Positions 5,904 through 44,435 of a DNA stretch of 64,000 nucleotides are shown piece by piece. Numbering within the stretch: position 1 is the stretch's first letter; every line of letters starts with the position of its first letter. The position numbers and the translations under genes are program-made. Origin of the DNA: a virus (taxonomy: Duplodnaviria; Caudoviricetes); the IMG/VR virus record IMGVR_UViG_2654588115_000001, positions 1 to 64,000 of that record. One strand, 5' to 3'. Under the pieces are notes generated by a model. The model did not search any database and was not told the origin of the DNA. It saw only the letters and a list, made by a program, of their open reading frames with translations.

Positions 5904-5967
5904 AACTGTATAGCTGTGTACCATTACGCCATTACACAGTTATACAATTACACCATTGTAATGGTGT
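5904..5967. repeat. octamer array 2 (8 units)
   Basis: aactgtat agctgtgt accattac gccattac acagttat acaattac accattgt aatggtgt. Confidence 0.85.
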
Positions 5968-6012
5968 AATAATAGAATAATGGGCCTTGACTGTTAAGCC
6001 AAAGCCCCTCCC

Positions 6013-6768
6013 TTACTCCTTCACCTTGGAAATGGTGATAACCGCGAAATCGTCCTTGCCATCACCCGGGTCAAGAATATTGACCGTGAGGTTCGGCGTA
6101 GATGCCTTATCACGGGCCGTTTCGATGTCGAACTTACCATCGCAGCGAGTACGGCGAGCGTACAGGTCAATCTGGTACTTGTTGCCATCGGAATCCTCCG
6201 TGCGGAACATCCAGTTAAAGGTGGCCACCTCCGGCATAGCATTTTTCAGCATAGAAGCCTTGACCGCCGTATCATCGTCAGCCTTGTACCACACGGCATA
6301 CTCACCGTCTGCTGCATCCGCAGCAAAGGTTACTGCCCCTGCAGCCGTCACCGTAACCGCATCGGTCTTCTGGCCATCCGGGCCAACGACAGCAATCACC
6401 GCCACACCAGAGAGCTTGCCCCCCGGCACCAGCTCCGTGTCATTCTTACGCAGCAGCACACGACCGGTACGCTTATTGCCAGATGCCGTCACATCAACGC
6501 CCTGGGCAATAGCCAGCTGGGACAGCTTGAACTCTGCATTGGTCAGCTCCACCTTACCTTCTTTCTTGGAAATAAAGGTATACAGGGGGAACAGGGAGTC
6601 ACCACCGAACTGGTCCTCAGTCGTGGCATCAATGCTCATTTTCATGGTCTGCGCCGTGGTGATTTCCAGCAGCTTGCCAGACACCGTTTCCAAAAGGCCA
6701 CTGCCAATGCCATGCAGGAGCAGGCCCTTATTCAGAATGTTATTGATTCCAGCCATTATTCGCATCAT
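6013..6768 (-). CDS. major tail (tube) protein
   Basis: Synteny after tail terminator and before chaperone; beta-rich 251 aa with GGDSLFPLYTF and tube-like C-terminus. Confidence 0.8.
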   Translation of the reverse strand: MMRIMAGINNILNKGLLLHGIGSGLLETVSGKLLEITTAQTMKMSIDATTEDQFGGDSLFPLYTFISKKEGKVELTNAEFKLSQLAIAQGVDVTASGNKRTGRVLLRKNDTELVPGGKLSGVAVIAVVGPDGQKTDAVTVTAAGAVTFAADAADGEYAVWYKADDDTAVKASMLKNAMPEVATFNWMFRTEDSDGNKYQIDLYARRTRCDGKFDIETARDKASTPNLTVNILDPGDGKDDFAVITISKVKE

Positions 6769-6774
6769 CCTTTC

Positions 6775-7179
6775 CTAGTTGAATATCAGCGGCATAAATT
6801 CCAGCCGATACTTGTATATGTCCTTAATCCCCGAACTTCGTTGCCCTTCCGCACATACTCGCTCGTCAAAATGCTCGTGCATCAGGTGGACAATCCTCTC
6901 CCGAATCTTCCCCGTCTCACTACGGGTCTTCGTATATATTTCAATTCTTAGGATTCCCCTGTTCATATAAGCATTTTGCGTAACCGTGGCATCCACGAAA
7001 TAAAAGGCAATGAAGTTAAGGTCTTTAGGCTCAAATTCATCTACCTCTTGGTCGCGGCGGCGAAACTTCGATGCAAACTCACGCATATTTTTCGGCTTAC
7101 CGGCTTTAAGTAATTTCCGCAGGATTTCATCCTCGGTAAAAATTTTCGCTATTTCTTCCGTATACCTAAATGAGTCCAT
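6775..7179 (-). CDS. tail terminator / tail completion protein
   Basis: Synteny and size (134 aa); LRIEIYTK motif. Confidence 0.6.
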   Translation of the reverse strand: MDSFRYTEEIAKIFTEDEILRKLLKAGKPKNMREFASKFRRRDQEVDEFEPKDLNFIAFYFVDATVTQNAYMNRGILRIEIYTKTRSETGKIRERIVHLMHEHFDERVCAEGQRSSGIKDIYKYRLEFMPLIFN

Positions 7180-7757
7180 CAGTGGCCACCTCGCTTTACT
7201 TCTTTATCTATCATTTTGCCCAATGCAAAAAATATTTCATCTTCCATCGCTTTCATCCGCGCCGAAGTTCCCTCCTTGGGAGCCACATTGTCACGGACTA
7301 CATGATGCCCCTTCCTTGGCGTAACCTTGCCCCACGTCTTACCCTTCCCTGCGGTTTCCCACTCCAGGTTCAAGCCATGGGGCATGGCCATCGAAGAACC
7401 TGCATGGTAGTTACCGTCAAGGTCATAATAGGGACCACGGCTGCGGATTTCGTTACCGCTGGGGTCGTTGCCAGGTGGTTTGCCTCGTTCTGGGTTCCAT
7501 AGTCCACTCCGTTTATAATCCGAAAGCCCCGGATTTTCTGTTTCATCATCCATTTTTGAACCAGACCCATGTTCGACAATCCACATTTTCTGCCCCTTCG
7601 CCGTATAAGTGCCTATGACCTCATCCGGCTCGTCCTTGGTAATCTCGAAGGAAATCTCCGCATTGCCAGAGTCCATCGTGAACTTGCCCCAATCACTGCG
7701 AACATCCGCCATAACACCACTGGCAGTGCGCTTTAATATCTCGGCAATCTCACTCAC
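7179..7757 (-). CDS. neck / tail completion protein (HK97 gp10-like position)
   Basis: Synteny; IVEHGSG resembles the VEYGTG motif. Confidence 0.55.
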   Translation of the reverse strand: MSEIAEILKRTASGVMADVRSDWGKFTMDSGNAEISFEITKDEPDEVIGTYTAKGQKMWIVEHGSGSKMDDETENPGLSDYKRSGLWNPERGKPPGNDPSGNEIRSRGPYYDLDGNYHAGSSMAMPHGLNLEWETAGKGKTWGKVTPRKGHHVVRDNVAPKEGTSARMKAMEDEIFFALGKMIDKEVKRGGH

Positions 7758-30104: not shown

Positions 30105-30759
30105 ATGCTCTAACCATTTCTAAAGTTACTTTATCATATAGAGATTTTAGTTCATTAATTGCTTTTCTTACAACTTCGATATTATCTACTTTATCACATT
30201 CAATAGTCTTATATATTTGTGTTCTGTAAATTTTATTTTCACTAATAATATTTTTTAATTCATCTTTATCTCTAAGTGGGACAACCTTAGTGCTTCTTCT
30301 TTTTGAGATACCATATTGGAAACCGCTTGGTAAATCCATCGTAAGAGTTATATCGTTGTACTTATTAATCATTTTATAAGTAGTTTGTTTTTCATTTATT
30401 TCCAAAGCAACTCTATACTCTGCTTTTTCATTATTAGGTTCTGCAAACAAAGAAATACTAACTGCCCCACCAACATAATTGATATTCTGCAATTCTGCCC
30501 ATAAATATGTTCTAATTCTTCTTCGTGTTCCATCGAGCACATTATTATGTTGGACAAAAACAAAATCTGTATTTGCACATATGTTTTCAACTTCTTTATT
30601 AAAAACTTCAATCATATGCAGAGAATTTTTATATAAATCTTCCATATATTTTTTTTCATTTGCATCGATTATCTTTTTAGGAGATTTATACGCTTTGCCA
30701 CAGCAGGACATAATATAGTTAGCCAATTCACTATTATTCATGCTCGCAACCTTCTTCAT
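30103..30759 (-). CDS. R-M-associated hypothetical protein
   Basis: Last gene of the low-GC cassette; YLWAEL...SISLF resembles DNA-recognition N-domains of type IV nucleases (tentative). Confidence 0.55.
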   Translation of the reverse strand: MKKVASMNNSELANYIMSCCGKAYKSPKKIIDANEKKYMEDLYKNSLHMIEVFNKEVENICANTDFVFVQHNNVLDGTRRRIRTYLWAELQNINYVGGAVSISLFAEPNNEKAEYRVALEINEKQTTYKMINKYNDITLTMDLPSGFQYGISKRRSTKVVPLRDKDELKNIISENKIYRTQIYKTIECDKVDNIEVVRKAINELKSLYDKVTLEMVRA

Positions 30760-31720
30760 TTAGATATTTTGTCACTTGATTAGCTATATGCCAAAACATA
30801 ACAGGAGGAATTGCATTCCCTAATGCCCTATACTGACTTGAATCACTACCACAGAGCTTGAAGTCCTCCGGGAAAGACTGTATTCTTGCTACCTCTCTAG
30901 GAGTAAATCTTCTATACTTGTCATTTTCAAACAATACAGGGTCAGTACTGTTCAAGGATACTTTTGCTAAATGAGCACCAACTGTATTGCATGGGCCATT
31001 AATATCCTGGGCTCTTCCTTTATTCATTGAATCACGATTTTTCATCATTCCATCAACTGCTCTTTGCGAAAAGTAATATTTGTCCGGCACATCTTCTTCG
31101 AGAACTTTTCTTAATGGAACATAATCACTGCTATCATTAATTAAAGACTCTGGAAACTCAAAGTCAACATTCAAGTCTTTTCTAAAGCCTACAATTATAA
31201 CCCTTTCTCTTTTCTGTGGAACCCCATACTCAACAGCCTTAACAATATCATACTTAACTGTATAACCAGAATCCTCGAATTCTTTTATAATCAAAGGAAA
31301 CGCCTCATGTTTATTGGCAGTTAATATCCCTTTAACATTTTCCGCAATAAAGCATTTAGGTTTTTTTTCACGTAATATTCTACACATCTCGAAGAAAAGC
31401 ATTCCCTTATCGTCTTTAATACCCAGTCTTTTTGGATTCTGGGCTACTATTGAAAAACTTTGACACGGGAAACCACCAGTTAAAATATCAATTTCTGGTA
31501 TTTCGGATGATTTAACTGTTCTAATATCTCTATTATCCGGTTTTAATCCAAAATTTTCTTCAAAAATATTGCAAGCCGATTCTTCAATATCATTAGCATA
31601 TACAATTTCCATACCATTGTCATTATAGTGATTTCCTAAAAAGTTAAAATCACCTAACAACCCAACATCAGTTCCTCCACACCCACAAAACAAAGATGCA
31701 ACTTTTAATTTCCGTTCCAC
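30734..31720 (-). CDS. DNA cytosine-5 methyltransferase M2
   Basis: LFCGCGG, GGFPCQ, ENVKG, QKRER, REVARIQSFP, LGNAIPP. Confidence 0.95.
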   Translation of the reverse strand: MERKLKVASLFCGCGGTDVGLLGDFNFLGNHYNDNGMEIVYANDIEESACNIFEENFGLKPDNRDIRTVKSSEIPEIDILTGGFPCQSFSIVAQNPKRLGIKDDKGMLFFEMCRILREKKPKCFIAENVKGILTANKHEAFPLIIKEFEDSGYTVKYDIVKAVEYGVPQKRERVIIVGFRKDLNVDFEFPESLINDSSDYVPLRKVLEEDVPDKYYFSQRAVDGMMKNRDSMNKGRAQDINGPCNTVGAHLAKVSLNSTDPVLFENDKYRRFTPREVARIQSFPEDFKLCGSDSSQYRALGNAIPPVMFWHIANQVTKYLNEEGCEHE

Positions 31721-33135
31721 GCTAATAACTCCTCATATTGTCCAGCTTTTTCCTTAAATGTTATTTCCATTCCATCTCTAGGCGCTATTGAAATTAAATC
31801 ATCCTTAAATAATTTGACAGGGTCATTTAATATAAATAATTTTATATTCGACTTGCTTATCATCAATCTGTAAACAAAATACCTATTTGTATAGCTTGTT
31901 GCAGCTTGCCATTCATTAGGCGTAAGATGAATTTTATTAAAAACAATAGGCCTATTACTAATAGTAGTCTTTACTTCTATATTCCTTATAGTTTCGTCAA
32001 GTTCTCTTGAGCTAATATCATATCCAACAGCTAATTCTGTCGGCATCTTTTTCACCAAATGTATAAGGTCTTCTCTACCACCAATTCGTAGTCTCTCACA
32101 CTCGTGCCCTTCAACTAACGTTTCGCCAATATCGCCAATATCTTTGGTGTTTAAGTTGTCAAATTTATTAATTTTTTCAAGATAAACCGCAAATTGTTTC
32201 ATTCTTTCATTACGATTATCTTTTTCACTATCCAACGCATCGCAAATATAATTTGTTATATCTGTGCTAAAGTCTGTGTCGGTTAGTTCTCTGTTAACAT
32301 ATCTAAACCAGTTCGATTTACAATTATTAATCTCATCTAGTGAAGCCGTTCCTCTTTCAATGTACTCATCATACTCATCGAACCATTCATTTGAATTAAC
32401 GAACCTAAGTATTGTTTCATTTTCTCTATGGTTCAAGTAGAAATGTTTTCCATTATACGACGTTAATAAATTTGCTAATTCCATATAATCAAGTATATCT
32501 CCTGCATACCTAATTATATCTCCTTCTTGAACATACTCCCTTTCCAATTCTCTATTTTTTTGAATACGATGCCACGCATTTATAGGAGGTTCATTATCCC
32601 TAGTACATCTCAAATCGTTAAATATGCAATAACAAGCCTCTGCTTTTGTAATATAGCATTTTTTTCCTGTTTCTTTTTCTGCATCACTTAATACTCTTAG
32701 AAAATATGCTACAGGCTTAAATCTTATTTTATTTTCGATAAGTTCTTTTATATATTTAGCTTTTACATGCGCCCCAGGATATTGAAATGTAAAACAAAAT
32801 CTCTTAAAGAATCTTACCAAATCATTTGATTCAGCCAACTCATTTGCACTTAGACAAGCATGATTTTTTCTATATTCATCTTCATAGAACAATCCAAACA
32901 GTGATGAGATTTCCGTTCTCCAATTATTCATTGTCTTCACTGTCACTGTCGCATTTCCAGGAAAGCATCTTATTGATTTTAACAGCTCTTCATTAAATTC
33001 ATCTTTGTCTCTACTACCAATTCTATTAATCTCAGAAGCCATATAAATCAATACTGCTTCTACATTAGACTTAAAGCGTGGTCTGCAATGATGTATTCTA
33101 AAGTTGTATTCTTCCGGAGTATGATATATAGACAC
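31705..33135 (-). CDS. type II restriction endonuclease (C-terminal PD-(D/E)xK, DUF3883-like)
   Basis: Between two MTases; GDIGE...GYDISS...IEVKTT...LTPNEW catalytic signature. Confidence 0.8.
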   Translation of the reverse strand: MSIYHTPEEYNFRIHHCRPRFKSNVEAVLIYMASEINRIGSRDKDEFNEELLKSIRCFPGNATVTVKTMNNWRTEISSLFGLFYEDEYRKNHACLSANELAESNDLVRFFKRFCFTFQYPGAHVKAKYIKELIENKIRFKPVAYFLRVLSDAEKETGKKCYITKAEACYCIFNDLRCTRDNEPPINAWHRIQKNRELEREYVQEGDIIRYAGDILDYMELANLLTSYNGKHFYLNHRENETILRFVNSNEWFDEYDEYIERGTASLDEINNCKSNWFRYVNRELTDTDFSTDITNYICDALDSEKDNRNERMKQFAVYLEKINKFDNLNTKDIGDIGETLVEGHECERLRIGGREDLIHLVKKMPTELAVGYDISSRELDETIRNIEVKTTISNRPIVFNKIHLTPNEWQAATSYTNRYFVYRLMISKSNIKLFILNDPVKLFKDDLISIAPRDGMEITFKEKAGQYEELLAWNGN

Positions 33136-33137
33136 AA

Positions 33138-34229
33138 TTATCTCTCCTCTTTAGCTTCAAGGACTTTTCTTACTTGCTTTGCTATTTCCTGTGCCATAAG
33201 TGGTGGCACAGCATTTCCCACTTGTCTAAATTGCTGTGTTTTATTACCTAAAAACCGAAAATCATCTGGGAATGATTGTAATCTTGCACATTCTCTTACA
33301 GTCGGAACTCTATTATATTTGTAATGGAAATGATGTCTATGTCCTGTATCTATTGTTGGAGCAGGCTTATTATCTGGAAATCTCGTCCATGCAACATGGA
33401 AATTTCTTGTATTTCTATATTCTTCTGGTAAATCCTTGTAATTTCCTCCGGCAGGAACTAAAGATATAATCTTTCTAACTCTTTCCGTATGGTTAGCAGC
33501 TATATGGTTTTTTACACTGTCCGAATTTTTTCTCATTAATTTTTGATAATCATTTTGCGGTTGAACTGCATAATCCTGGATTTCTTCTCCTAATGTATCT
33601 TCTAATGGAGGCAAATCTGACAAAGCCATTTCGCAGGTGACTATTTCAGATTTAGGCGTAGGATAATGAAATTCTATATTTGCATCCTTCGTCCCCACAA
33701 AAATAACTCTTCTTCTATTTTGTGGAACTCCATAATCAGCAGAACATAATATTTCGCATTTAACATCATAACCCATTTTCCCAAATTCTGTTAAAATGCT
33801 TTCTTTAATTTTTCCCTTAAACAAACCGACAAGACCAGGTACATTCTCAATGACAAATGCTTTTGGTTGGATTTCCTTAACCAGTCTAATATATGACAAA
33901 TATAGTTTATTTCGTGGGTCATCAAACTTTCTAGGGCCAGATAGCGACATGCCCTGACATGGCGGCCCACCAACTATTATATCAATAGTTTTATCTCCGA
34001 TAAGAGGTTTTATATCCTTCTCATAAGTAATTGTTGTTATATCACCACAAATAGACTTTGCCCCTTTATGGTTTAATTCAAATGTTTCTAATGCTTTCTG
34101 GTCACTGTCTATTCCTACTAAAATATCAAAATTATCCTGTTGAAAGCCATAAGAAAGGCCGCCAGCACCACAAAATAAGTCTATTGCATTATATTTTTTC
34201 ACCTTATTTATCACCTTTTCAAAATACAT
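33138..34229 (-). CDS. DNA cytosine-5 methyltransferase M1
   Basis: DLFCGAGG, GGPPCQ, ENVPG, QNRRR, RECARLQSFP, QVGNAVPP. Confidence 0.95.
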   Translation of the reverse strand: MYFEKVINKVKKYNAIDLFCGAGGLSYGFQQDNFDILVGIDSDQKALETFELNHKGAKSICGDITTITYEKDIKPLIGDKTIDIIVGGPPCQGMSLSGPRKFDDPRNKLYLSYIRLVKEIQPKAFVIENVPGLVGLFKGKIKESILTEFGKMGYDVKCEILCSADYGVPQNRRRVIFVGTKDANIEFHYPTPKSEIVTCEMALSDLPPLEDTLGEEIQDYAVQPQNDYQKLMRKNSDSVKNHIAANHTERVRKIISLVPAGGNYKDLPEEYRNTRNFHVAWTRFPDNKPAPTIDTGHRHHFHYKYNRVPTVRECARLQSFPDDFRFLGNKTQQFRQVGNAVPPLMAQEIAKQVRKVLEAKEER

Positions 34230-41871: not shown

Positions 41872-42234
41872 TTAACATTCATAGCCAACAAAAAGTCCCT
41901 GCTCCTTCATCGCCCCGAATATTGCCACCAGTACCGGCACACAAATGGAGTTGCCGGCCTGTTTATAGAGCTGGGTATCTGAAAGCCCATTGGCCGACAA
42001 CATATCGGCATCCTCCTTGGCAAAACCTTGGAGCGCAAAACATTCTCTAGGGGTAAGTTTTCTAATTCTACCGTCTACCATTATTCCCTCCGCACAACTG
42101 CAACTTAATGTGTGAGCACATCCCTCTATGATTCTCCCACGGCGTTTCCCATGCGGAAAATCGAGGGCTAGTCCGTCATACTCTTTGCCCACTGCATAAC
42201 CTCGCTTCGTATTGTTCCTTGCGTAGTAAATCAA
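41872..42234 (-). CDS. split C5-MTase part 4: TRD plus motifs IX-X
   Basis: RRGR...AHTL; RKLTPRECFALQGF (IX); LYKQAGNSICVPV (X); TTG start overlapping upstream TGA. Confidence 0.85.
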   Translation of the reverse strand: MIYYARNNTKRGYAVGKEYDGLALDFPHGKRRGRIIEGCAHTLSCSCAEGIMVDGRIRKLTPRECFALQGFAKEDADMLSANGLSDTQLYKQAGNSICVPVLVAIFGAMKEQGLFVGYEC

Positions 42235-42560
42235 CTATCCACCAACACTTTCGGTATGTTGTTCCCTCCGGACCCCGTAGGGAGCGTAGGCGCAACACCA
42301 TTCGTGCCATAGACACGTCTTAGATAATCATGGCCACTAATAGTGGTCACTGTACCCTCACGAACAATACCATCATTAATCCCCTGCGGACTGGCGAAGG
42401 AAACAAAGCCCTTCAACTTTTCATCCGAGAGGAAATACCGTTCCGCAACATCGCGGTCACAAACATCCTGCAAATGAATTTCCAGCGGAACCGGCTGCGG
42501 AAACTTAAATCCCAGTAGCGGTATATCCACCCTATTCATTGCCCTCTGGACTTTATTCAC
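42231..42560 (-). CDS. split C5-MTase part 3: linker plus TRD module B
   Basis: FKFPQ...LQDVCD.DV..RYFLS linker; RVY...GVAPTL.T.SGG.N.PKV TRD motif. Confidence 0.75.
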   Translation of the reverse strand: MNKVQRAMNRVDIPLLGFKFPQPVPLEIHLQDVCDRDVAERYFLSDEKLKGFVSFASPQGINDGIVREGTVTTISGHDYLRRVYGTNGVAPTLPTGSGGNNIPKVLVDS

Positions 42561-42864
42561 CCAGGAACACCATCCTTGGGGCCTTGTATTCGGTAGCTGC
42601 AAGACAGGGTACAATAGATTTCAAATGACATACTTCGTAGTGCTGATGAACCTTACCATCATTCAGCGCAAGGCCAAAGACAAAATTCTTATTTGTCATT
42701 GGAGTAATGCGGCCATACCACATATCTGCCATGTAATATTTTCCAGGGACATCATCATCTAAAATATCCCCCAATGTCTTTACTCCGGGCTTTCCTTGCG
42801 GAAATTCAAAGGAAAGCGAGGGAATCATCCGCACATTTTCCTGTGCGCGTTCAAGACTGGTCAA
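42553..42864 (-). CDS. split C5-MTase part 2: linker plus TRD module A
   Basis: FEFPQ...LGDILDDDVPGKYY linker; PCLAATEYKAP TRD motif; TTGA coupling. Confidence 0.75.
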   Translation of the reverse strand: MTSLERAQENVRMIPSLSFEFPQGKPGVKTLGDILDDDVPGKYYMADMWYGRITPMTNKNFVFGLALNDGKVHQHYEVCHLKSIVPCLAATEYKAPRMVFLGE

Positions 42865-43385
42865 TCGGCAAGCCTCGACACACAGAAGATGCGCTCTCTG
42901 CTCTGCGGCACACCGTAGTCCTTGGCATTAAGGGTATCAAAGGAAGATTCATAGCCCATCTTGGCCAGCTCTTCCAGATATTCCTTGAACACAGGCAGAT
43001 GCTTTTCCGAGAGCACATTCGGAACATTTTCCCACAAAACGAATTTAGGCTTCTTCGCCCTCACAATTTCCACCGTGTTCCAGAGTAAGGAAGAACGAGT
43101 CCCCGAACCTTTTACACCACCTTCTCCACGGCCGGCCACAGAAAATGACTGACAGGGAGAACCATGGAATACCATATCAAAATCTGGAAGCTCCTCCGGC
43201 ACAATCTTTGTAATATCCCCGAGATTCATACTCTCCGGCACATTATGCAACAGGGAATAACTGCGGCTGGCAAACTTATCAATCTCACAGTAAGCCACCA
43301 GTTCAAAGGGAATCCCTGCTTTCTTCAAGGCCATTTCCGGGGCTCCAATACCAGAAAACAAACTCAATAATCGTAATTTCTTCAA
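42861..43385 (-). CDS. split C5-MTase part 1: catalytic motifs I-VIII
   Basis: SLFSGIG (I), GSPCQ (IV), ENV (VI), QSRERIF (VIII), then stop. Confidence 0.9.
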   Translation of the reverse strand: MKKLRLLSLFSGIGAPEMALKKAGIPFELVAYCEIDKFASRSYSLLHNVPESMNLGDITKIVPEELPDFDMVFHGSPCQSFSVAGRGEGGVKGSGTRSSLLWNTVEIVRAKKPKFVLWENVPNVLSEKHLPVFKEYLEELAKMGYESSFDTLNAKDYGVPQSRERIFCVSRLAD

Positions 43386-44257
43386 GACTTACCTCCGTAA
43401 TTCTCCTGCCAATAAGGGCAGAACTCATGTACATCACACCAGTCACGGCATTTTCTGTCCGGATAGGACTTGGAATTATCCCAGCGGTCACGCTTGTTGC
43501 AGACCGGAGGAATCTCGCCGCTTTCCAATGCTTTCATCAACGCATCATATTTGGCCTTCATATAGGTACGAACCCATTTCAGCGAAATAAAGTGAATCGG
43601 AACGATGTACCCTGCCTGGGTAATCCCGTACTTCTTCGCCGTGGCATCCACACCACCTCGGACAAACATATTGACATTGATTGCTTTGACATGAATCCCA
43701 TGCTTCTCCATGAGATAGCGGTAGTAATTAAGCTGAATGGCAATCTCGCGCACATCACGGATGCCACCAGGCTCAAATACCTGCTCCCACTTTTCCTTGC
43801 CCTTGTCCTTGCCACGGGTAACGATTCTGCTGCGCCACTTCGGCTTAAAGCCTAGAGCCTTTGAAATACGAAAAGCCCCAAAGAACTTCCAATCCCACAG
43901 AATCTGATTTTTGCAGTCATAGGCATCAAACTGTCCGGAGGTTATATCGTCCTCCAGGCGAACTTCCGCCAACCAACCATTCGGCTGATTATCCTCGAAA
44001 GCCTTGTGGCTGTTCGTGCCAATCATCGCCGCAATCCCCCCCATAGGGTCGATAGCATAATCATGGACGATTTCAAGGTAAGTCTGTCTGGTCGGCTTGA
44101 TGAGCTGCGTAACGCTCGGCTTACCAAACCAATGCCTTGTACTGTCCACCGCCGCCGTCAACGCCGGCAAACTCATACAACGCTGGTCGCAATGCTTTAA
44201 GCACTGCTCAAAAGGAATCTTCTCCCCGGCATTACACCGGAAGAACTTTGCTGGCAC
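43382..44257 (-). CDS. PD-(D/E)xK (Cas4/AddB-like) exonuclease
   Basis: IGT..H, E......G.FD, DWK, QLN.Y, C-terminal C...C..C.....CP. Confidence 0.8.
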   Translation of the reverse strand: MPAKFFRCNAGEKIPFEQCLKHCDQRCMSLPALTAAVDSTRHWFGKPSVTQLIKPTRQTYLEIVHDYAIDPMGGIAAMIGTNSHKAFEDNQPNGWLAEVRLEDDITSGQFDAYDCKNQILWDWKFFGAFRISKALGFKPKWRSRIVTRGKDKGKEKWEQVFEPGGIRDVREIAIQLNYYRYLMEKHGIHVKAINVNMFVRGGVDATAKKYGITQAGYIVPIHFISLKWVRTYMKAKYDALMKALESGEIPPVCNKRDRWDNSKSYPDRKCRDWCDVHEFCPYWQENYGGKS

Positions 44258-44365: not shown

Positions 44366-44435
44366 TATGTACTTCCTTAATACATTTATTATTATAAATA
44401 TGTAAAATGATAAAGTCAAGAGTGTATTTCTTATT

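Follow-up and report, generated by a model that had tools for sequence, protein, structure and literature searches.

Four coupled reading frames of a phage genome as a putative multi-chain C5 DNA methyltransferase of the multispecific type

The window analyzed here is a stretch of 64,000 nucleotides (nt) from a virus of the Caudoviricetes (positions 1 to 64,000 of IMG/VR record IMGVR_UViG_2654588115_000001), and it belongs to a virus record of 80,267 bases with a CheckV completeness of 100. On its minus strand, from 43385 to 41872, four abutting open reading frames (ORFs) in alternating frames carry the parts of a C5 DNA methyltransferase (MTase), as read from the ORFs of the window (Table 1). 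The motifs of Pfam family PF00145 are present, but they are spread over separate frames instead of forming the usual single polypeptide.

The catalytic N-terminal half is encoded by ORF1, which matches PF00145 with an E value of 8.2e-50 (residues 5-171 aligned with profile positions 2-161 of 324). Its translation contains LFSGIG, GSPCQSFS, WENVPN and PQSRER, corresponding to motifs I, IV, VI and VIII. The TGA stop follows nine codons past PQSRER, and a GGAGG lies 6 nt upstream of the TTG start. ORF4 covers the opposite end of the family: it matches profile positions 270-323 (E 2e-10; motifs IX-X) and also aligns with residues 263-313 of M.HhaI. It comprises a segment resembling a target recognition domain (TRD-C, TKRGYAV..KRRGRIIEGCAHTLSC), which precedes motif IX and aligns with one-chain relatives, followed by motif IX (RKLTPRECFALQGF) and motif X (QAGNSICVPV). 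ORF2 and ORF3, hereafter modules A and B, each occupy exactly the interval between motifs VIII and IX in the module alignments. Module A is composed of the linker IPSLSFEFPQ..LGDILDDDV..KYY and TRD-A (..DGKVHQHYEV..VPCLAATEYKAPRMV), and module B of the linker IPLLGFKFPQ..LQDVCDRDV..RYF and TRD-B (GHDYLRRVYGTNGVAPTLPTGSGGNNIPKV). Their N-terminal ~47 amino acids (aa) are homologous (BLASTP, 40% identity, E 2e-8), the TRD-like segments beyond differ, and neither ORF matched a Pfam or PHROG family. A search of PDB sequences with the module profile gave 0 matches at E ≤ 0.01. A sequence-only reading of this DNA had described the same layout, with motifs I-VIII ending at a stop just past motif VIII, two ORFs with a homologous linker and different TRD-like segments, and a fourth ORF with a third TRD and motifs IX-X; the family matches and alignments bear it out on each of these points.

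Table 1. Features of the split methyltransferase locus and its surroundings (window coordinates)
Feature	Position	Strand	Description
ORF1	42861..43385	-	174 aa, TTG start; catalytic N-half, motifs I-VIII
ORF2 (module A)	42553..42864	-	103 aa; 'MTSLERAQ' segment, linker, TRD-A
ORF3 (module B)	42231..42560	-	Probable GTG start at 42560, frame open from 42620; 'VNKVQRAM' segment, second linker, TRD-B
ORF4 (C-part)	41872..42234	-	120 aa; TRD-C and motifs IX-X
Junction 1	42861..42864	-	TTGA shared by ORF1 stop (TGA) and ORF2 start (TTG)
Junction 2	42553..42560	-	GTGAATAA; probable ORF3 GTG (42560-42558) overlaps ORF2 stop TAA (42555-42553)
Junction 3	42231..42237	-	TAGTTGA; TAG closes the ORF4 frame just upstream, TTG is the ORF4 start, TGA the ORF3 stop
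Promoter-like site	44391..44419	-	TTGACT-17-TATAAT, 11/12 matches, upstream of the 291-aa gene

The order of these pieces is that of continuous enzymes. Among 120 longer ORF1 homologues compared with the region by tblastn, the one-chain proteins P0082 (395 aa), P0119 (410 aa) and P0109 (541 aa) carry motifs I-VIII, one F-x-F-P linker, three TRDs and motifs IX-X in that order. The three TRDs follow each other as 'TATDYKQPK' (ORF2-like), 'RRVY..G.SPTL..GG..PK' (ORF3-like) and 'TKKGY..RRGRV..TL' (like the first half of ORF4). TRD-A aligns with the 'TATDYKQPK' TRD of P0082 and P0119, and segments A, B and C together align with the three tandem TRDs between motifs VIII and IX of P0082, P0109 and P0119. 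The MTase of phage phi3T (M13488.1, 443 aa) is collinear as well: ORF1 corresponds to residues 1-204 (37% identity, E 3e-43), the ORF2 linker to 233-266, ORF3 to 221-328 (30% identity, E 8e-16) and the IX-X part of ORF4 to 380-430 (59% identity). Because of this collinearity with one-chain relatives and the phi3T enzyme, the locus corresponds, judged by its sequence, to a C5-MTase of the multispecific type that is interrupted at three points and contains one additional linker copy. The linker repeated in separate ORFs, to which the sequence-only reading had drawn attention, is present, but it is not peculiar to split forms, since the one-chain relatives P0251 and P0166 also carry two linker-TRD modules in cis.

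The breaks are not assembly errors. A Logan contig of 80,298 nt (depth 204) shows no difference from the window stretch; it possibly derives from the same source sample, so that it tests the assembly and not independence. Run X2, an independent gut metagenome, yielded a 1510-nt contig over 41847-43328 that spans all three junctions with 52 substitutions and 0 gaps. In run X3, a 2005-nt contig over 41800-42885 has 63 substitutions and 0 gaps; it spans junctions 2 and 3 and extends past junction 1 by just 21 nt. No insertions or deletions are listed in the locus for any of the four runs, and among the 40 listed differences (53 more lie outside the list), 34 affect third codon positions in the frame of the local ORF.

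The split is also found in diverged relatives. A 79-kb IMG/VR contig (L002, the contig of L003 and L025 as well), whose 291-aa protein neighboring the locus is 90% identical to that of the window, has five ORFs in the order N, A, A', B, C, with an N-half of 176 aa and a second A-type module, A'. The 1278-nt metagenome contig L105 has the A, B, C layout of the window. ORF1 is 88% identical to its L002 counterpart, with a ratio of non-synonymous to synonymous substitution rates (dN/dS) of 0.04. Module A is 60% identical to that of L002 (dN/dS 0.20) and 60% to that of L105 (dN/dS 0.25), and module B is 72% identical to that of L002 (dN/dS 0.17), the L105 comparison being similar. For ORF4, which is 76% identical to the L002 protein, the proportions of non-synonymous (pN) and synonymous (pS) differences are 0.20 and 0.81, with pN at 0.18-0.21 across lineages. 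Between the lineages, synonymous differences approach or reach saturation (pS 0.57-0.89). Purifying selection acts on every piece, as judged from dN/dS values of 0.04-0.25 or from saturated synonymous sites. Together with the indel-free contigs and the same breaks in relatives, this agrees with the earlier observation that no internal decay is visible.

A search with ORF1 for proteins of near length gave 1187 proteins at E ≤ 1e-30 among 1951 candidates. Fourteen of the 16 best matches (65-93% identity) are 170-186 aa long and end in '..FC(I/V)SRL' plus 1-5 residues, the exceptions being P0296 (228 aa) and P0298 (255 aa). Among clusters ending after motif VIII, the 14 with the best scores (67-93% identity to ORF1) all consist of the N-half only, whereas the best one-chain relatives reach merely 62-67% at full coverage. 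Neither of the two sequence-based outcomes that would have spoken against the sequence-only reading was thus observed: the breakpoints are not assembly errors, and the close relatives do not have one continuous ORF but are N-half-only, with L002 and L105 keeping the pieces.

The modules, too, occur as proteins of their own. With a module profile, 18 stand-alone modules of 91-153 aa were found among 488 candidates of a word-indexed database, one of them being a Selenomonas ruminantium hypothetical protein according to one source. An exhaustive representative search with the same profile gave 1522 matches at E ≤ 1e-3, and 5/5 of those at E ≤ 1e-30 are stand-alone modules; further ~100-aa modules appear at weaker scores (P0142, P0160, P0207, P0210, P0167, P0267). 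Public data hold ~24 stand-alone ~100-aa modules. The class without an N-domain among 163 database proteins is inflated by fragments (P0140, P0141 and P0155 start within motifs VI-VIII), and only ~100-aa modules bounded at both ends are counted as stand-alone here.

With blastn in distant mode, the locus matched nothing in the phage collection, and a peptide-pattern scan of viral contigs found no relative with ORF3 alone and only L002 with ORF2 alone. A module B profile scan of genome contigs recovered 9 loci at 36-55% identity (Flavobacterium and metagenome-assembled genomes), none of them close, while scans of viral and of metagenome contigs recovered 80 loci each, with only L025 (the L002 contig) and L105 close. 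Of these 160 loci, nine either have their parts distributed over more than one reading frame or contain an in-frame stop (L025, L105, L027, L107, L110, L146, L169, L166 and L183); in the others, the detected parts lie in one frame or are cut by contig ends. The detectors for motifs IX-X and for the modules are insensitive for distant families, and loci in which only an N-part, or an N-part and a module, was detected are not evidence of truncation.

Four of these loci (L027, L107, L146 and L169) are two-piece forms, in which motifs I-VIII, linker and TRD-A/B are followed by an overlapping ORF with TRD-C and motifs IX-X. The second ORF starts with 'MIAIKTANK..' or 'MIPIKTANK..', and the break point is that of junction 3 in the window. 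L110, in the same group, has extra breaks and looks decayed. In P0271 (168 aa), module B is fused to motifs IX-X. The layouts known from these comparisons range from one chain (P0082, P0109, P0119) through two pieces and the P0271 fusion to four (window, L105) and five pieces (L002). On a fragment of a related phage (L005, IMGVR_UViG_3300037400_003456), the 291-aa gene is followed at 5966-7320 by a different, unrelated C5-MTase in three coupled ORFs, which carry motifs I-VIII, a 60-aa TRD-like segment, and TRDs with motifs IX-X; at 6826 the frames overlap in ATGTATAA, and a GAGGA stands upstream of it. Split multi-TRD methylases may be a recurrent feature of this phage group. Other ORF1 homologues and relatives depart in different ways: L183 (682-2268) is a distant C5-MTase of another subfamily in which one in-frame TGA separates the N-part from the TRD/IX-X part, P0002 (519 aa) has Hint/intein domains (PF13403, PF14890) within the methylase, and P0001 (623 aa) has two N-half-like regions.

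The junctions themselves have the form of coupled starts and stops. As the sequence-only reading had noted, TTGA overlaps occur at two of the three junctions (42861-42864 and 42231-42234), and the exonuclease-like 291-aa gene upstream (phrog_2139) is joined to ORF1 by TTGA in the same way. A GAGG lies 8 nt upstream of junction 1. Junction 2 has the same geometry as ATGAATAG of L002, and the window GTG stands in the alignment column of the L002 ATG; the X2/X3 differences at 42568 and 42604 are third codon positions of the ORF2 frame and not of the ORF3 frame. The counterparts of junction 3 are ATGA in L002 and TGATG in L105. The starts of the downstream ORFs share one alignment column (ATG three times and TTG once in L002; TTG, GTG and TTG in the window), with purine-rich motifs resembling Shine-Dalgarno (SD) sequences 3-12 nt upstream, and right after the start follows a conserved M-[NT]-x-[LVI]-[EQ]-[RK]-A segment that is seen in more than 15 diverged modules. 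Start and stop codons overlap by 4, 8 and 4 nt in the window, by 8, 14, 8 and 4 nt in L002, and by 1 nt at junction 3 of L105.

This N-terminal segment, M-[NT]-x-[LVI]-[EQ]-[RK]-A-x-x in its longer form, precedes the linker in stand-alone modules (ORF2 42864-42840, ORF3 42560-42530). It is the best-predicted part of the AlphaFold2 model (helix 3-10; predicted local distance difference test score, pLDDT, of 75 for the block), and its counterpart in phi3T comprises residues 221-232 (LSKGKKRLQEIN). The segment may serve in docking, or it may be left over from the stretch that follows motif VIII.

The four frames are real, coding, selected and kept as separate ORFs with their own starts, and the number of modules varies among relatives. 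We propose, with a probability of about 0.75, that they encode an orphan phage C5 DNA methyltransferase of the multispecific type, built from four separate, translationally coupled polypeptides. ORF1 would provide the large domain, which binds S-adenosylmethionine and carries the catalytic cysteine in 'GSPCQ', and ORF4 would complete the fold with motif IX and the motif X helix while bringing its own TRD-C, so that ORF1 and ORF4 would form a core like that of M.AquI. A module would dock on ORF1 via its F-x-F-P linker, which presumably belongs to the large domain, going by the domain boundaries of M.HhaI. The docked module would then present its TRD to the major groove of the DNA, adding one target per module. 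The modules may bind to the core alternately or, as the presence of two of them in cis in P0251 and P0166 would allow, together. A more specific proposal, to which we give even odds, is that the ~100-aa modules act in trans as specificity subunits, a C5 counterpart of HsdS, any of which could dock by its linker on the ORF1/ORF4 core. Module content differs between relatives (A and B in the window and L105; A, A' and B in L002) while boundaries and overlap coupling are kept, as a plug-in design predicts. The plug-in idea of the sequence-only reading is supported by the variation in module number and type, with all pieces under selection; the assembly of the subunits, methylation activity, the specificity of each TRD and an anti-restriction role are inferred.

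Several observations weigh against this proposal. Only three loci of the four- and five-piece clade can be read as DNA (window, L002 and L105). The start of ORF3 is ambiguous, with GTG at 42560, ATG at 42539 and TTG at 42614 as candidates, and the window starts are TTG in three of the four ORFs and GTG in one; TTG starts are ordinary in this phage, being found in ORF1, the primase-helicase gene and the RusA gene. Two linker-TRD modules occur in cis in one-chain relatives, so that an extra linker alone is not evidence for docking in trans. As ORF2 and ORF3 have no motif IX, they could act only together with ORF4, whose TRD-C adjoins motif IX and would have to be displaced by, or accommodated beside, a TRD supplied in trans. 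Isolated module B folds poorly in AlphaFold2 (mean pLDDT 52.2; predicted template modeling score 0.29), which fits a need for partners without proving one.

Instead of separate chains, the locus might yield a fused multispecific MTase of ~500 aa, perhaps along with shorter products, if ribosomes shifted frame at the three junctions (-1, +1, -1). Such programmed recoding accords with the collinearity of the pieces with one-chain relatives, with the alignment of P0109, which runs unbroken across junction 3 (q433 to q432; tblastn) where the window changes frame, and with the direction of the frame change that the window, L002 and L105 share (+1 at junction 2, -1 at junction 3). It would, however, demand three efficient shifts in succession, no slippery heptamer or homopolymer run was seen at any of the junctions, and the TAG directly before the start at junction 3 closes the downstream frame. 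Nor is the direction of the shift constant: junction 1 shifts by -1 in the window and by +1 in L002, where the homologous junction has an ATG start and an 8-nt overlap, and the break corresponding to junction 3 is +1 in the two-piece relatives L107 and L169 and -1 in L027 and L146. This variation among relatives, together with overlap lengths of 1, 4, 8 and 14 nt, argues against programmed frameshifting, and each downstream ORF has a start in the conserved column and an SD-like motif. We consider recoding quite improbable; the junction pattern favors termination-reinitiation coupling of separate polypeptides, as far as sequence can tell. Decay of a once-continuous multispecific MTase, or a sequencing or assembly artifact, could be suspected from the three frame changes within 1.5 kb, the existence of one-chain relatives and the decayed appearance of L110. 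The re-assembly at depth 204 is nevertheless identical and the independent contigs are free of indels, the same breaks recur in lineages with saturated synonymous sites, the residue position at which ORF1 ends is shared by 14 of its 16 closest relatives, the stops coincide exactly with the module boundaries and are overlapped by start codons, and the neighboring genes and two other C5-MTases of the phage are intact. Because the contigs are indel-free, the breaks are conserved in diverged lineages and the pieces are selected, both decay and assembly error are excluded for practical purposes.

It is also conceivable that ORF1 and ORF4 alone form the working enzyme, a heterodimer like M.AquI that uses TRD-C, while ORF2 and ORF3 are translated but compete for the core, modulate it or serve as a reservoir of TRD cassettes for recombination. 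ORF4 does carry a complete TRD beside motif IX, distant relatives exist in a two-piece form (N-A-B followed by C-IX-X; L027, L107, L146, L169), and the modules have no motif IX and fold poorly alone. Yet the modules are conserved over their full length, including the TRD core motifs common to active-type enzymes such as that of phi3T, with dN/dS values of 0.17-0.25, and the same A and B types of TRD stand upstream of C, in the same order, in one-chain relatives. For a cassette reservoir, the locus offers only short direct repeats (≤ 25 nt), one 12-nt inverted pair and no long inverted repeats, and no further module copies were found elsewhere in the 80-kb genome; with only short repeats, a DNA-switch mechanism has no support. 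We regard this explanation as unlikely and retain the four-chain enzyme as the preferred reading.

Besides the 291-aa exonuclease-like gene, the neighbors of the locus are the primase-helicase gene and RusA. A restriction endonuclease gene was not found among these neighbors, so that the pairing of a Type II restriction-modification (R-M) system does not apply, and the MTase is therefore an orphan methylase in a replication module, as in Bacillus phages. Self-protection of the phage DNA against several host restriction systems is its likely role. An apparently complete BpuJI-like Type IIS R-M system lies 8 kb away, at 30734-34229 on the minus strand; its BpuJI-like protein of 476 aa contains BpuJI_N (PF11564, E 2e-97) and a NOV_C nuclease domain and is flanked by intact C5-MTases of 363 and 328 aa. 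As these are two intact one-chain enzymes in the same phage, C5-MTase genes are not generally broken in this genome. The exonuclease-like gene and ORF1 to ORF4 could be driven as one operon from the promoter-like site of Table 1. By consensus scan only, 3 promoter-like sites were found in the region versus 4.9 expected, and terminator-like matches within the locus (3 versus 3.0 expected) occur at chance level.

Between the 291-aa gene and ORF1 (43361-43398), the X2 and X3 contigs carry 325 other letters in place of 36 nt, and L002 has a 130-aa ORF (2089-2481) at this site, a small gene that is present or absent among relatives. Run X1 gave a phage-sized contig of 80,298 nt at a word depth of 204 in a data set of 3.4 Mb, and near-identical proteins of the L002 lineage, on a 78,742-nt contig, are named Selenomonas ruminantium by one source. 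This depth and these names suggest a phage element that replicates or is kept at high copy number in cultured hosts resembling Selenomonas.

If the modules do act in trans, the insertion or deletion of a single small, self-contained and coupled gene (A' in L002 being an example) would let a phage acquire, discard or exchange a protected target while its catalytic genes stay untouched, and the locus would be a natural 'plug-and-play' C5-MTase and a scaffold for programmable methylation. A conserved enzyme of four to five chains would show that the variable region is a natural detachable folding and docking unit, and the layout would suggest that multispecific phage methylases evolve by adding or removing whole linker-TRD modules. 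The pieces could also be of practical use as natural parts for split or programmable cytosine methylases. For annotation, adjacent ~100-aa 'hypothetical proteins' and ~175-aa 'truncated' MTases in phages may be working subunits rather than pseudogenes, and the split layouts in other phage and metagenome contigs (L027, L107, L146 and L169; L005) indicate that the phenomenon may be wider.

Among known systems, the MTases of Bacillus phages (phi3T, SPbeta mtbP, SPR, rho11s and H2) resemble the locus in being orphan C5-MTases encoded by phages in which several TRDs separate motif VIII from motif IX, and the phi3T gene is annotated with a TTG start, like ORF1. According to work of the Trautner laboratory, the TRDs of these multispecific enzymes reportedly act independently. 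The Bacillus phage enzymes are single polypeptides (443 aa for phi3T), whereas the window has four ORFs and L002 five, and the TRDs of the locus sit on three different ORFs rather than on one chain as in phi3T and SPR.

Natural two-polypeptide C5-MTases are M.AquI and M.EcoHK31I, C5-MTases being otherwise nearly always monomers (PMC3404938, available part of the text). In M.AquI, the same part of that source places the split within the variable region, with motifs I-VIII on the larger chain and the distal variable region plus motifs IX-X on the smaller one. ORF1 with ORF4, and the two-piece relatives L027, L107, L146 and L169, are likewise an N-part and a C-part encoded by adjacent genes. M.AquI, however, has two chains and one specificity, whereas the locus has four chains, two of which lack catalytic and IX-X motifs. 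ORF1 breaks off directly after motif VIII and not inside the variable region, and where M.AquI has exactly two subunits, both needed for activity, two selected TRD-only ORFs lie between ORF1 and ORF4. M.EcoHK31I is similar in being a natural C5-MTase that needs two polypeptides (PMC3404938, same part). Enzymes of its type have no separate TRD chains, and their small chain, with motif IX only, is encoded within the large gene in a different frame; in the locus, ORF4 carries motif IX as well as motif X, and the ORFs follow one another without nesting.

Engineered split C5-MTases offer the physical basis that we assume for the locus, namely the reassembly of fragments: detached pieces of M.BspRI, M.BsuRI, M.HhaI and M.SssI complement each other in Escherichia coli, best when cut in the proximal variable region (PMC3404938, in the portion available). 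These constructs are artificial, consist of two fragments and, unlike the locus, have no exchangeable TRD-only fragment. A likeness in logic, not in family, exists with Type I R-M systems, in which a specificity polypeptide of its own handles recognition, its gene being coupled in translation to that of the catalytic subunit (PMC3510504, available part of the text). HsdM and HsdS have an unrelated fold and chemistry (N6-adenine, gamma class), and HsdS carries two TRDs per chain. Natural C5-MTases that have TRD-only subunits or exceed two chains did not come up in a literature search that left most subscription journals, REBASE and supplementary files outside its scope. By its sequence features, the locus appears to combine a split of the M.AquI type with multispecificity of the phi3T/SPR type, in a layout of four to five pieces with TRD-only ORFs that seems to be new.

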